Notes under the pieces: generated by a model
The model's database searches: none
What the model was told of the DNA's origin: nothing
What the model saw: only the letters and a program-made list of their open reading frames with translations
Position numbers and translations under genes: made by a program
Origin: Dictyostelium discoideum
Lineage: Eukaryota
Reading direction: 5' to 3'
Length of the DNA stretch: 64,000 nt
Assembly: GCA_000004695.1 (NCBI GenBank)
Contig: CM000153.2
Span: 2,464,001-2,528,000 of the forward strand
Shown here: piece by piece, positions 2,407-40,732 of the stretch
How positions within the stretch are numbered: the first letter of the stretch is position 1
Layout of the letters: each line of letters opens with the position of its first letter

Positions 2407-2632
2407 AAAATAAAATAAAAATAAAAATAAAAAAATAAAAATAAATTTTTGATGTTTTTTTTTAAAATTTTTAAAAAAAATTTAAAAAAAAAAGGGGTTT
2501 TTTTATGGCAAAAAAAATTTTTTTTCCCAAAAAATTTAAAAAAAAAAAAATTTTTTAAATATTAAAAAATTTTTTTTTTTTTTTTTTTCAAAAAAAAAAA
2601 AAAAAAAAAAAAAAACCCCAACTTTTTTTTTT

Positions 2633-2670
<38 letters not shown>

Positions 2671-10831: not shown

Positions 10832-11145
10832 TGTTTTTTTTTTTGCAATATTTTTTTTTTTTTTTTTTTTTTTCCCATTTCGCTTTTTTTTTTTTTTTTT
10901 TTTTTTTAAATTATTTTTTTTTTTTTCAATTTTTTTTTTTTTTTTTTTTTTTAACACAAAATTTCCAAATAAATAATTTTCTATAATTAGAATTTTTTAA
11001 CATATTAATGGTATTTTATTTAACTTTGTTTATTTAATAAAAAAAAAAAACTAAAAAAAAATTGTTTTTTTCCAAATTCTCCCATAACTTTTTTTTTAAA
11101 TTTTTTTTTTTTTTTTAAATTAGGAATTTAAAAAATTATTTATTT

Positions 11146-11233
11146 GCGTGTTTGATCGCTATCTGGGGATGCGTGTGGACTTCAAATCCATAGCTCGATA
11201 ACTCGAGAGTTGTTCGATTCAACCTGACGCGCG
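11146..11233 (+). tRNA. Selenocysteine tRNA (tRNA-Sec, anticodon TCA reading UGA)
   Basis: An 88-nt GC-rich island in AT-rich DNA: GCGTGTTTGATCGCTATCTGGGGATGCGTGTGGACTTCAAATCCATAGCTCGATAACTCGAGAGTTGTTCGATTCAACCTGACGCGCG. A 6-bp anticodon stem (TGTGGA/TCCATA) carries the loop CTTCAAA, giving anticodon UCA. The long variable arm is CTCGA-TAAC-TCGAG. The T-arm is GTTG-TTCGATT-CAAC. A 9-bp acceptor pairs to ...CTGACGCGC with discriminator G. It aligns block-by-block with vertebrate tRNA-Sec (GCCCGGATGATCC..TCTGGGG..GCTTCAAACCTGTAGC..AGTGGTTCAATTCCACC..CGGGCG). A TTTATTGTTTT run lies immediately 3', and an AT-rich TATA-like stretch lies about 25-30 nt upstream. Confidence 0.8.
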
Positions 11234-13532: not shown

Positions 13533-13895
13533 TTATTCATTTTTACTGCCATTTGGATATTTTCTTTCACCATATGCTGATATATAGTTTATATCATAGT
13601 CTTTTGATTTAATAATTTGTTTTAATTGTTCAATTTCTTTTAATTTTTCTTTAAGGATTGAAACTACCAAGTTACTGGAGATATGGTAATCACCATTTTC
13701 TAAACCATCCAATTGTGAGGGATGAGTAATATTTTTATATGCATTTGGTTCTTCTAATGGAGTATTTGATAACCAAGTTTCTTTATTATCAAATTCAACA
13801 GAACATAAATTTTTATTTTTTAATGCATCATTTAATTGATTTGTTGTTTCAATTCTAATTTTTAAATTTTTTTTTATATAATTTAAAATATCCAT
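13533..13895 (-). CDS. Small hypothetical protein (~120 aa), paralog of the N-terminal domain of the 11500-13179 gene
   Basis: The real ATG is at ~13895 (MDILNYIKKNLK...); the 37 residues the track places before it start at a non-ATG codon. It shares 'HPSQL' and 'S(I/V)L(S/K)EKL(E/K)(D/E)I' with its neighbour, in the same orientation, about 350 bp upstream. Confidence 0.5.
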   Translation of the reverse strand: MDILNYIKKNLKIRIETTNQLNDALKNKNLCSVEFDNKETWLSNTPLEEPNAYKNITHPSQLDGLENGDYHISSNLVVSILKEKLKEIEQLKQIIKSKDYDINYISAYGERKYPNGSKNE

Positions 13896-17016: not shown

Positions 17017-18785
<1,769 letters not shown>

Positions 18786-19005
18786 TCCAATTGATTTTTT
18801 TTTTTTTTATTGAAATTTTTATTTTTCACTTTTTTTTTTTATTTTTTTAATTTTTTTTTTTTTTTTTAATTAATAATGTTAAAAAAAAAAAAAAAAAAGG
18901 TTGTAATGTTGTTACTTTTAAGTAAATTTTTTGAGCGTTGTCATGTTTTTTAGTTTCTAAAACCTCATTTATTGAAACTCGAATGATTTTTTTTTTTTAA
19001 AAAAA

Positions 19006-19076
19006 TGGACCTTGAGGGGATCGATCCCTCCCTGCCAGTTTGCGGAACTAGAATGCAACCTATACATCAAAGGCCC
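19006..19076 (-). tRNA. tRNA-like element with alanine identity features (G3:U70, A73, anticodon CGC); atypical, and possibly a pseudogene
   Basis: A 71-nt GC-rich island on the minus strand: GGGCCTTTGATGTATAGGTTGCATTCTAGTTCCGCAAACTGGCAGGGAGGGATCGATCCCCTCAAGGTCCA. The 7-bp acceptor contains a G3:U70 wobble. The D-stem is ATGT/GCAT. The anticodon stem CTAGT/ACTGG carries the loop TCCGCAA, giving anticodon CGC. The T-arm is GAGGG-ATCGATC-CCCTC. The discriminator is A. A T7 run lies directly 3' on that strand. Deviations are C33, A54 and a weak A-box. Confidence 0.4.
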
Positions 19077-19194
19077 GTTGGGACATGAGCTGCCTTAAGA
19101 AAAATTTTAAATTTAATAGACATAATTTTAATTAAAAGAATATATAAATAAATGTTTTATTTATTTTTTATTATTGTTAACAATTTTTCTATTT

Positions 19195-19584
19195 TTAATT
19201 TTTAATTTTAAATTTTTCTATTTTTCTATTTTTATTTTTTAAATTTTTCTTGATATGACTAAAATATTCTTTATAAAATTGTTCAAGTTTTAATATCAAT
19301 TGTTCCCTTTCTATTTTCAATTGTTCCCTTTCTATTTTCAATTGTTCCCTTTCTATTTTCAATTGTTCCCTTTCTCTTTTCAATTGTTCCCTTTCTCTTT
19401 TCAATTGTTCAATTATTAATTCCAATTGATCGTTTTCTTGTTCCAATTGTTGCATTTCTTGTTCCAATATTTCCGGTATGTGATTTGAGTAAGTAACTAC
19501 TACTGTATTATTTGTAATATCTATTGTATTTTCAGCAAGGAAAAACAATATAATGAAATCTAAAATATAAAAAAAAAATTTCAA
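19195..19584 (-). CDS. Coiled-coil ORF built on 27-nt tandem repeats encoding (REQLKIERE)n; the gene model is uncertain
   Basis: 129-aa ORF. Its first codon is TTG, not ATG. An 'atattttag' motif a few codons into the ORF could be an acceptor, but the hydrophobic ILDFIILFFLA segment lies downstream of it. Nucleotide repeats of 'ttgttccctttctattttcaa' (4-5 copies, 19300-19400) lie on the plus strand. Confidence 0.3.
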   Translation of the reverse strand: MKFFFYILDFIILFFLAENTIDITNNTVVVTYSNHIPEILEQEMQQLEQENDQLELIIEQLKREREQLKREREQLKIEREQLKIEREQLKIEREQLILKLEQFYKEYFSHIKKNLKNKNRKIEKFKIKN

Positions 19585-37890: not shown

Positions 37891-40732
37891 TTATAAATTA
37901 TTATTAATTTCTTTTAATTTTTTCTCTAATAAAGTTTGAGTTTTACTTAATTTCACTCTTTGTCTGGTAATAAAGAAAGCTGAAACTATTAAAGCAGCAC
38001 CACCAATACCTACACCAATACCAACACCAATTTTCCAACCATTTTCAGATTTTTTATTATCAGTATTTCCATTTTGAGAACCGTCCTGTGAGGTACAACT
38101 ATTGATTGATGGTTCACGAACTACAGCAGTTGAATAAGCAGTTAAATCTAATTCAAAACTAGCACTTTGACAATCGTATGCGTTTACTTTAGTTACCATT
38201 TTATTGAATAAACCAGAAATACCAACTGAATTTGAAGTTACACCACCATTACCACTTTGACCATTTACAATTGCAACTTTTGGAAATCTACCAAAATATT
38301 CAACATTGTAAGTATTTAAAGTAAAGAAACGAGTATCCACTGATGAACCAGTTGGATTACCAAAAATAATTGGAAGATTTTGACATTCTTTTGGATATTG
38401 ATCAAATTCAAATAAAAATTGAGGATTATTAACAGTTAATGAACTTCCAGAATAATAATCTACTCTATATGTTAAACTATTCAATGGGAATGAAATAAAT
38501 TGATCACTTGAACTAATTTGATTTTGTCTAATTGTAACATTTATATTCTTTTGATTGGCTCCATACCATTGATATAAAGTTGTATATTGATCGATTGGAA
38601 TTGATTTCCATTGATCAATTAAAATTTCATTTTGATTTTCAATTATTGAAACTAAATATAATTTCATTGAAGATGTGGTTTTTGCATCATCATTTAATTG
38701 TGGTGTCATTGTTATAGTTGCATTATTTTCACCAAATTCAAATTTTGATACAATGGTAGATAGTGAACAATCTGCACCAGTGAAATTACTATTACAAATA
38801 CACATTCCAACATCACCATCACAATAACCATTACTACCACAATTATTTGGACAAAATGATGGATCCATCATTGTTAATAAATTTGAAATTGCACCATATG
38901 ATAATTTATTAACAGTGACTGAAACATCCAATTGACCAGCTGGTAAAATAAATGGTGTTTTTGGGAATTTACATGTTAAAATTGTATGATTTACTGATTG
39001 AACTGGACAATCGATAGAACCCTGTACCAATACTTGTACCATTGAAGTATCATTCCAAAAATTTGAACCAAAAATGGTAACTATTGATTCAAGTTTTGTT
39101 GGAATTAATTTAGTTGATGTACTTTTAATTAATGGTGGTGAATATAAGAATGTAAAAGCTTGATTTCTATTATCTTGACCACTGACACTAACAACAAATA
39201 TACCACCATCAATACCACTTGGTAAATCACATGTTAAAGTTTGATAAGCATTTATTACTTTTACATTTGTGCATTCAATTTCTGTGCCTTTTTTATTGAT
39301 TAATCTAACATAGTTATTTGAATCAGTGGTGGTTCTAGTTGCAATCCAAAAGTTTGTACCATAAATTGTAGCGGTACCACCAATTGTTGGCACAGGTGTA
39401 ATGGAAGCAATACTTGGTGCATTATATTTAAATGAAATTGAAGATGATGGTGCAGGAGTTACATCATTTAATACATTCAATGTTAAAGTACCTTGACCAT
39501 ATATGAATGGATTACTACATGATATTAAAGTGCCAAATTGTTGAACTTGACAATTCAATGGTACAGCACCATTTACATTCTCCATTGAAATACTAATGAA
39601 AGGAATGAATGCACCTAACATTGTACCTCTGATTTGAATACTAAAATCCAATGAACTAATTGGTGTTGTAATACTTGCAATTGTTGGTGAACAAGTTCCC
39701 ATTGGTCCAAATTTAGCCTGATCATATAAAATTCTAAAACTTGTTGATGTACTTAAGAAAACTGATTTTGGTAAACAATAAAATGATGATGGTAATTCAC
39801 CACCAGCAGCACCTCCGATATTAGTTGAAGTTATATCTAAAAAGTTTAAACCACCAGCTAAAATATCATTTGGCAATGCACCTGTGAATGCTGTATTTGA
39901 AATGAAAAGTTGAGTCAATTTAGAACGTGATCCAAATTCTGATGTAAATGAACCAATTAAATTTGGATTATTTTGTGAATACCAAATTCTTAAATTTGGT
40001 AAATAGAAAAACTCTGGATCTATAGTACCAATAATAGCTAAATTATTAAGTGTAACAGTTTGTAATGAATCCCAACTAACCTCTCCAATTCTTGGCATTG
40101 TCTTATTGGCTCCAAAATTTAATAAAAATAATTGAAGTGTTGTTAATGTTGATGGTAATTTATAAAATACACTAAAACTAATTGAATAACCATTACAATA
40201 TAATAAAAATGTTTGTAAACTTGTTGAATTTTTAAATAATGTTGATTGAAGTGATACTGAACTAATTGGTGCAACTTGTAATTGTAAATAACTTTTTTTT
40301 TTTAAAATAAAAAAAATAAAAAAAATTAGAAATATGAAATAAAAAATATATATATACCACTACTACTACTATTACTTACAATGTTAATAAATTTGGGGTA
40401 AAGATTTCAAATGGAAATCTTGCTTGTGTAGCTGCTGTATCATCGGAATGGTAATAACTATTTAGAATTAAAAAAAAAAAAAAAAAAAAAAAAAATATAT
40501 ATTAATAGATAAAATAAAAAATTAAAATAATAATTAAATAAATATAAAATTTACTTACAAATTTTGAAGAGAAGTTGGTAATAAAGGCATTGTTCCCACA
40601 ACTGGTTGAATATGTAAATATTTTAAAGATACCATTTTGGTCCAATCATTTAGTCCATTATCAGTGGTAATTTTAAAATTGTATGTTGAAATTGATTGAC
40701 TAGAAAAAAAGAAATTATTAGTAACAACGTTT

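Follow-up and report, generated by a model that had tools for sequence, protein, structure and literature searches.

A conserved tRNA-Ala(CGC)-like gene with C33 in place of U33 in Dictyostelium

A 64-kb stretch of the Dictyostelium discoideum genome (assembly GCA_000004695.1, contig CM000153.2, positions 2,464,001 to 2,528,000; hereafter the window) carries on its minus strand a 71-nt element that is best explained as a functional, single-copy nuclear tRNA-Ala(CGC) gene. It would be transcribed using RNA polymerase III (Pol III), charged by alanyl-tRNA synthetase (AlaRS), used to read GCG codons and held under selection in at least three group-4 Dictyostelium species. We place the probability of this reading, which is drawn from the DNA sequence, at about 60%. 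It is built on a cloverleaf, a covariance-model score, a set of identity marks, conservation limited to 71 nt and structure-preserving substitutions, all of which are directly observed. We propose that an unusual primary sequence has caused annotation to pass over the element.

The window has a GC content of ∼20% and contains open reading frames with the poly-N and poly-Q tracts typical of Dictyostelium. Intergenic DNA is ∼10–15% GC (about 14% near the element), compared with 52–54% GC in the 71-nt body in three species. The element has the sequence GGGCCUUUGAUGUAUAGGUUGCAUUCUAGUUCCGCAAACUGGCAGGGAGGGAUCGAUCCCCUCAAGGUCCA, and tRNA index n corresponds to window position 19077−n. The minimum-energy fold of the minus strand is the cloverleaf; the plus strand has no comparable fold and folds no better than shuffled sequences. 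The element and its immediate surroundings comprise the following features.

19006..19076, minus strand: tRNA-like gene body of 71 nt, with stems of 7 bp (acceptor), 4 bp (D), 5 bp (anticodon) and 5 bp (T) and a variable region of 4 nt
19070..19076, minus strand: 5′ strand of the acceptor stem, GGGCCUU, which pairs with 19007..19013 (AAGGUCC)
19042..19044, minus strand: anticodon CGC (Sprinzl 34–36), from the Rfam alignment and the ARAGORN call
19059..19069, minus strand: A-box-like segment TGATGTATAGG (tRNA positions 8–19), weak, matching 5 of the 9 specified positions of the textbook TRGCNNAGTGG
19017..19027, minus strand: B-box and T-loop segment GGATCGATCCC (Sprinzl 52–62, with A54), matching 7 of the 8 specified positions of GTTCRAnYC
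18999..19005, minus strand: T7 run resembling a Pol III terminator, directly after A73 (an A run on the plus strand)
19077..19099, minus strand: 5′ flank CTTAAGGCAGCTCATGTCCCAAC, 23 nt, 52% GC, free of T runs and with T5 at its upstream border

The anticodon loop is the 7-nt UCCGCAA (U32-C33-C34-G35-C36-A37-A38), with C33 at 19045 and A37 at 19041, and is the same in D. citrinum and D. firmibasis. The near-invariant tRNA bases U8, A14, G18, G19, G53, U55, C56, A58 and C61 are all present in the model alignment. The initial annotation, made from the sequence of this stretch, had described an atypical alanine-like tRNA on the minus strand within 19000–19100, and the cloverleaf at 19006..19076, with its score of 38.9 bits against the tRNA model, bears this out; the G3:U70 wobble, A73, CGC anticodon and directly 3′ T7 run that it listed are all in place.

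The G3:U70 wobble is the main determinant of alanine identity. In the element it is formed by 19074 and 19009, is invariant in three species, and is joined by the discriminator A73 at 19006 and an NGC anticodon (CGC), which completes the alanine identity set. In place of the usual G10, A21, U33 and T54 the element has A10, U21, C33 and A54, and U15/G48 is a further departure from the tRNA norm. Hence the elongator marks U33, G10 and A21 are missing, with C33 invariant in three species and position 21 being C in D. citrinum and D. firmibasis. C33 and A54 had both been singled out as deviations in the initial annotation. The former stands, at 19045 and without change in any of the three species. 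A54 is indeed present, but it is no defect for the alanine isotype, being a signature of the class that also occurs in D. discoideum tRNA-Ala(UGC). Published descriptions assign A54/A58 to initiator tRNAs and to a large class of eukaryotic tRNA-Ala (PMC7566577, PMC9023262), and the reverse primer for D. discoideum AlaUGC reads ...AAGGGATC on the sense strand (PMC5391098 S1 Table), where ...AAGGTAAAGGGATC in sense orientation corresponds to G53-A54-U55-C56. In the A54/A58 class of tRNA-Ala, R15/A48 is always an accompanying feature (PMC7566577). The element lacks it, with U at position 15 and G at position 48, though A54 and A58 are present. C33 is reported in published surveys (including PMC9023262) only in the initiator tRNA-Met of multicellular eukaryotes. 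None of the initiator marks tested was found in the element: its anticodon is CGC, pair 1:72 is G1:C72 in the Rfam alignment and the anticodon stem is CUAGU/ACUGG. The real deviations are C33, A10 and Y21, with C33 the main oddity.

The Rfam tRNA model RF00005 matches the element at 38.9 bits (E=2e-7) over model positions 1–71 with no gaps and no non-standard pair; the gathering score is 29 bits, and the match was obtained on a 111-nt input, for which the Infernal speed filters are lax. The orthologous copies score 37.3 bits (D. citrinum) and 38.4 bits (D. firmibasis), both above the gathering score. The initial annotation had named the lack of a tRNAscan-SE hit as a refutation, and the covariance model gives full-length matches above threshold in three species. 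ARAGORN with its threshold lowered to 90% (-ps90) calls tRNA-Ala(cgc). With default settings, ARAGORN called nothing in the 64-kb window, and Rfam cmscan left the element unreported whether its input was the whole window or a 500-nt stretch containing the element. The D. citrinum copy was dropped by the Infernal speed filters even on a 111-nt input (13755..13865 of the D. citrinum locus, L002). The silence of default cmscan is attributed to these speed filters: a tRNA structure is combined with a primary sequence odd enough for the element to fail sequence-based prefilters. Other RNA families were considered for the GC-rich island and its flank and were rejected, as a permissive Rfam search gave wcaG, a trypanosomatid LSU model, D12-methyl and bxd_5, all far below threshold. 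The sole report of cmscan on the whole window is a tRNA-Sec at 11146..11232 on the plus strand (64.2 bits), found at L002 6402..6488 in D. citrinum and at L003 5645..5731 in D. firmibasis, which was likewise missed by ARAGORN with default settings. At a threshold of 85%, ARAGORN returned three extra calls, a tRNA-Pro(ggg) at 2572..2646 (minus strand), a tRNA-Ile(gat) at 17262..17357 (plus strand) and an undetermined tRNA at 39549..39636 (minus strand). Their surroundings are very AT-rich or poly-Asn coding sequence, and all three are probably false positives.

Published D. discoideum tRNA sets hold no counterpart of the element. The complete set comprises 405 annotated genes in 42 families, with rows for AlaAGC and AlaUGC and none for AlaCGC, ProCGG, ArgCCG or GlyCCC (PMC5391098 S2 Table). 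A 2026 analysis with tRNAscan-SE 2.0 gives 407 tRNA genes with 42 anticodons; 20 anticodons are missing, four are covered only by U:G wobble, and the three tRNA pseudogenes (undetermined, Ser-TGA and Leu-TAA) include none for Ala (PMC13063481). The wobble-only anticodons agree exactly with the four families lacking from the 405-gene set, and Ala-CGC is among these four missing C34 anticodons. The comparison with the annotated tRNA-Ala genes that the initial annotation had suggested thus yields AlaAGC and AlaUGC and no Ala-CGC. The annotation used in a published LOTTE-seq analysis is also without the element, and a text search of the literature for its sequence returned unrelated papers only. 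Judged from the published tRNA sets, the element appears to be unannotated, and its absence is ascribed to the filter behaviour of tRNA finders. GCG accounts for 2 of the 217 Ala codons in the long open reading frames of the window, for 0 of 54 in D. citrinum and for 3 of 79 in D. firmibasis, and the eight D. discoideum tRNA-Ala(UGC) genes could read it by wobble.

Comparison loci were fetched around orthologs of a 603-aa LRR gene used as an anchor, and three fairly close species were compared, represented by the window, D. citrinum (L002) and D. firmibasis (L003). The anchor protein has orthologs with 79% identity in D. citrinum, 72% in D. firmibasis, 53% in D. purpureum and 40% in Polysphondylium violaceum, and the window itself is 99.66% identical to record CM142510.1 of GCA_054883475.1 across 21.8 kb; the element falls within positions 3064957–3086768 of that record. 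The gene order SARAF, translin, tRNA-Sec, 603-aa LRR gene, XLF homologue, copine and PLAC8 is common to D. citrinum, D. firmibasis and the window. Conservation of the cloverleaf among dictyostelids, another check named in the initial annotation, was found at the syntenic place in both of the other species.

L002 13766..13836, same strand as the window copy: D. citrinum ortholog, between the XLF gene and the copine gene
L003 17797..17867, same strand as the window copy: D. firmibasis ortholog, between the XLF gene and the copine gene

Of the 71 columns, 66 are invariant in this three-species comparison and the bodies are 93–99% identical in pairs, whereas the 150-nt flanks on each side have 45–61% identity, which is the level of shuffled sequence. 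The conserved block begins exactly at G1 and stops exactly at A73. The neighbouring tRNA-Sec, a single-copy bona fide tRNA, shows the same level of conservation as the element (84 of 87 positions invariant). The variable positions are the following, numbered within the tRNA.

Positions 6 and 67: acceptor-stem pair, U:A in the window and A:U in D. citrinum and D. firmibasis
Position 9: junction, G in the window and A in the other two (R to R)
Position 21: D loop, U in the window and C in the other two
Position 60: T loop, A in D. citrinum and C in the other two

Each species has standard bases at every one of the 21 pairs (63 of 63 pair cells, versus 33–49% with slid partners). None of the five substitutions disrupts a pair, and two of them together make up the A:U/U:A exchange at 6:67. 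With random placement of the substitutions (four and one on two lineages), all pairs remained standard in 4% of trials, and they did so with a double change within one pair in 0.3–0.4% of trials, the covariation having as its basis three sequences and one double substitution. A very low rate of change, sharp borders and structure-preserving changes point, despite the small number of sequences, to selection on an RNA. The conservation pattern argues against a decaying pseudogene, a DNA-only site and a coding exon.

A rare tRNA-Ala(CGC) isoacceptor, a tRNA pseudogene and a tRNA-derived element had all been offered in the initial annotation, and the first of these is now favoured. A tRNA pseudogene, or the disused remnant of what was once a tRNA-Ala gene, would be in keeping with rejection of the element by the default ARAGORN and Infernal filters, its deviations at U33, G10 and A21 and its absence from the annotated tRNA sets; moreover, such exceptions are published mostly for low-scoring, probably pseudogenic genes (PMC9023262). 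Yet a relic would have had to keep 52–54% GC and 93–99% identity across three species in which the flanks are randomised, with zero broken pairs, one pair changed on both sides and a conserved block bounded exactly by G1 and A73, and we regard this explanation as highly improbable. Even less can be said for a chance structure, or for a small plus-strand coding exon from the ATG at 19005, a reading whose probability is next to negligible. A 27-codon ATG-initiated open reading frame on the plus strand does overlap the element, and the D. citrinum annotation begins a gene there. However, this frame is cut to 21 codons by a stop in D. citrinum, and the substitutions do not follow a codon-like pattern. 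Shuffled sequences fold at least as well as the plus strand does, and chance is opposed by the E-value of 2e-7 for the tRNA model. The D. citrinum gene in question (438 aa, GCA_054859145.1) starts at L002 13765 on the plus strand with an ATG that is the complement of the tRNA 3′ end (CCAT); its first exon runs antisense over the element and is probably a spurious gene start.

The genes around the element differ among the three species. In D. firmibasis a 1076-aa gene with a Ras/Roc domain (Roco-type; L003 14171..17497, plus strand) separates the XLF gene from the element, and in the window and D. citrinum other plus-strand genes sit between the element and the copine gene, so that the tRNA-like gene has kept its place while the gene content next to it was reshuffled. 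In the window the XLF/Cernunnos homologue (17017..18785, minus strand, three exons) lies directly 3′ of the element, with its ATG ∼220 bp away, and contains a long poly-Asn tract; PF09302 is recorded on its D. firmibasis ortholog. Just upstream of the element and on the same strand is a 129-aa open reading frame (19195..19584, minus strand), in which 22-nt tandem repeats (caattgttccctttctattttc, at ∼19290..19400) encode EREQLKI repeats. It has no gene call in GCA_054883475.1 and no counterpart in D. citrinum.

Searches beyond these loci returned no further copies. The anchor-gene loci of D. purpureum and P. violaceum are not syntenic and contain no copy of the element, and protein searches with a copine exon and the XLF head domain returned no dictyostelid proteins. 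Two Logan contigs reached via copine matches, one of which (L006) is GC-rich, also had no copy. A model built from the three orthologs matched these three alone in 162 kb of sequence, with no paralogs, and a 37-nt core allowing 3 mismatches occurred once in the window. The pattern CTAGTTCCGCAAACTGGN7GGATCGAT had no match in collections of metagenomes or of viral and bacterial/archaeal genomes, nor did GGGATCGATNCCCTCANGGTCCA match anything in metagenomes. The anchor protein is absent from the exact-sequence cluster collection.

The internal promoter of the putative gene is uneven. The A-box-like segment has U8, A14 and G18G19, with G10 and A21 replaced by A10 and U21, and the poor A box noted in the initial annotation is apparent in its match to 5 of 9 specified textbook positions. 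The palindromic core of the B box, GGGATCGATCCC, is also found in D. firmibasis. D. discoideum B boxes have the core GTTCRAnYC with a 'GTC' signature 5–7 bp upstream (PMC3159450), and this signature is absent at that distance from the B-box core of the element. The A54 within the B-box segment also occurs in tRNA-Ala genes that are functional. A search for an external B box downstream gave ATTCGAGTT as the best candidate, ∼21 nt past the terminator and matching 6 of 8 positions of GTTCRAnYC by eye; it has no conserved counterpart in D. citrinum or D. firmibasis and was rejected. The near-perfect, palindromic B-box core also raises the possibility that the element acts as DNA, as a TFIIIC/TFIIIB site (of the 'extra TFIIIC' kind or a boundary) for chromatin or retrotransposon targeting, with its RNA irrelevant; isolated B boxes of D. 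discoideum do attract TRE5-A (PMC3159450, PMC5391098). We consider this highly improbable, as conservation extends over all 71 nt and takes in stems distant from both boxes, the exchange in the acceptor stem keeps an RNA pairing that DNA binding does not need, and the position relative to neighbouring genes varies (the Roco-type gene is interposed in D. firmibasis).

On the 3′ side, a T run starts at the base after A73 in all three species, as T7 in the window, T25 in D. citrinum and T24 in D. firmibasis. A Pol III leader has to avoid T runs. The stretch before +1 without a run of four or more T is 23 nt in the window, 27 nt in D. citrinum and 18 nt in D. firmibasis, with T4–5 at its upstream border. 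In DNA this AT-rich, a leader free of T runs therefore looks GC-enriched, and the GC-rich flank is probably the initiation and leader region and not a separate element. The initial annotation had called this flank downstream and unexplained. It is GC-rich (52%), but it is downstream only on the plus strand, lying 5′ on the strand of the gene, and it is not a conserved element: only TTTTCTTAAGGCA is common to the window and D. citrinum, 4 nt further from +1 in the latter, and the D. firmibasis flank is a different sequence with 33% GC. A positional promoter element in the flank was rejected on the same grounds, with CTTAAGG at −23..−17 in the window, at −27..−21 in D. citrinum and absent from D. 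firmibasis. No Rfam family matched the flank. In DUSE-driven Dictyostelium non-coding RNAs (Class I/II RNAs and snRNAs) the DUSE, [AT]CCCA[AT]AA, lies ∼63 bp upstream and is accompanied by the motif CCTTACAG (PMC3188802). A DUSE or Class I RNA reading of the flank was rejected, there being no DUSE in the 80 nt upstream in any of the three species and no CCTTACAG. The neighbouring tRNA-Sec has a DUSE upstream (∼11080..11087), conserved at −66..−59, which suggests an external promoter for that gene.

For the favoured tRNA-Ala(CGC) gene we infer transcription, processing, charging and decoding as follows. TFIIIC would bind the internal B box GGATCGATCCC and the weak A box, and Pol III would initiate within the 18–27 nt free of T runs before +1 and terminate in the T run after A73. 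The ends would then be trimmed by RNase P and RNase Z and CCA added, and alanyl-tRNA synthetase would charge the RNA via G3:U70 and A73. The product would decode the very rare codon GCG, with C34 pairing with G alone. As a speculation, the unusual C33 and the pairable U32/A38 may tune an all-G:C codon–anticodon helix. Against decoding stand C33, A10, U/C21, U15/G48, the weak A box, the missing 'GTC' signature and the lack of a convincing external B box, and selection for GCG decoding alone seems weak for conservation so tight.

It is because of this tiny demand for GCG, set against tight conservation, that decoding is not given a higher probability and that a second reading is retained as a clearly less likely but appreciable alternative. 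According to this alternative, the element encodes a functional tRNA-shaped RNA that is transcribed and probably alanylated and whose main role is not routine decoding; it might be a Pol III transcript with a regulatory function, give rise to tRNA-like fragments, donate Ala outside normal elongation or act as a P-site-type ligand. The RNA is tightly conserved though GCG is nearly unused, C33 and A54 occur jointly elsewhere in initiator tRNAs, a class that takes no part in elongation, and A10, Y21 and U15/G48 are off elongator norms. In addition, the anticodon arm and the T arm (save position 60 of the T loop) are invariant, whereas the acceptor stem accepts an exchange. Conversely, the anticodon loop has the standard 7 nt, includes A37 and presents a sense anticodon otherwise missing from the repertoire, and all the tertiary anchors of the L shape (U8, A14, G18G19, G53, U55, C56, A58 and C61) are in place. 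The element also fits no known non-decoding class, having no DUSE promoter and no conserved upstream host transcript, and it has none of the initiator marks (A1:U72, three anticodon-stem G:C pairs and CAU). We continue to favour a tRNA-Ala(CGC) that reads GCG, and hold the relic, DNA-element and chance readings to be unlikely even when taken jointly.

By supplying Ala-CGC, the element would change the stated D. discoideum repertoire, in which 42 anticodons are encoded and U:G wobble stands in for four with C34. It is also a concrete case of a tRNA that is clearly under selection and scores above threshold with the full model, yet is lost with ARAGORN defaults and Infernal speed filters; tRNA censuses of AT-rich genomes may miss similar genes. 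A conserved C33 outside initiators is a natural test of the nucleotide requirement of the U-turn, and strong conservation with negligible codon demand raises the question of the real purpose of the RNA. A further reading, less likely than not, is that the element is either the first known C33 elongator, tuned for all-G:C pairing, or an alanine-accepting tRNA-like RNA outside ordinary decoding, in both cases naturally selected, cytosolic and without U33; the latter is suggested because it is conserved so tightly despite almost no GCG codons. If this were true, filter-based finders would systematically hide such genes, and hidden counterparts for Pro-CGG, Arg-CCG and Gly-CCC might exist.

The element can be compared with four known systems. 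Among annotated D. discoideum genes, the single-copy C34 genes ThrCGU-1, SerCGA-1, ValCAC-1, GlnCUG-1 and LeuCAG-1 (PMC5391098 S2 Table) resemble it in providing one gene per rare NNG codon, and their codons, like GCG, are also readable by a U34 isoacceptor. Unlike the element, these genes are annotated and found by standard tools, and the codon of the element is rarer still. The mascRNA at the 3′ end of MALAT1 is likewise tRNA-shaped, with off-consensus loops and a location in non-coding DNA. In contrast to mascRNA, the element has an anticodon loop that is invariant and of standard size, an acceptor with a synthetase identity pair and a Pol III terminator-like T run directly after it, and no conserved host transcript lies upstream.

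No natural class other than eukaryotic initiator tRNA-Met has been reported to combine C33 and A54/A58, as the element does. The element shares with this initiator A50:U64 in the T stem, a pair that has a role in initiator tRNAs. Unlike initiator tRNA-Met, the element has no CAU, no A1:U72 and no G29–G31:C39–C41 run, A60 is missing from the copies in two of the three species, and the identity marks are those of alanine. There are also parallels with the A54/A58 class of eukaryotic cytosolic tRNA-Ala (Westhof et al. 2020, PMC7566577), which likewise has G1-G2-G3:U70, A73, an NGC anticodon, A37 and a GGGAUCGAU T arm with A54. A purine at position 60, another described feature of the class, is present in the D. 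citrinum copy, and the T-stem GAGGG of the element resembles the AAGGG of D. discoideum AlaAGC and AlaUGC in the primer sequences. The element differs from the class in having U15/G48 for R15/A48, C33, A10, Y21 and a 4-nt variable region, and no relation is seen between its D arm, anticodon stem or variable region and those of D. discoideum AlaAGC and AlaUGC, as far as these are visible in the primers. The absence of R15/A48, together with the different anticodon stem and variable region, therefore points to an old, diverged tRNA-Ala lineage and not to a recent copy with a mutated anticodon.
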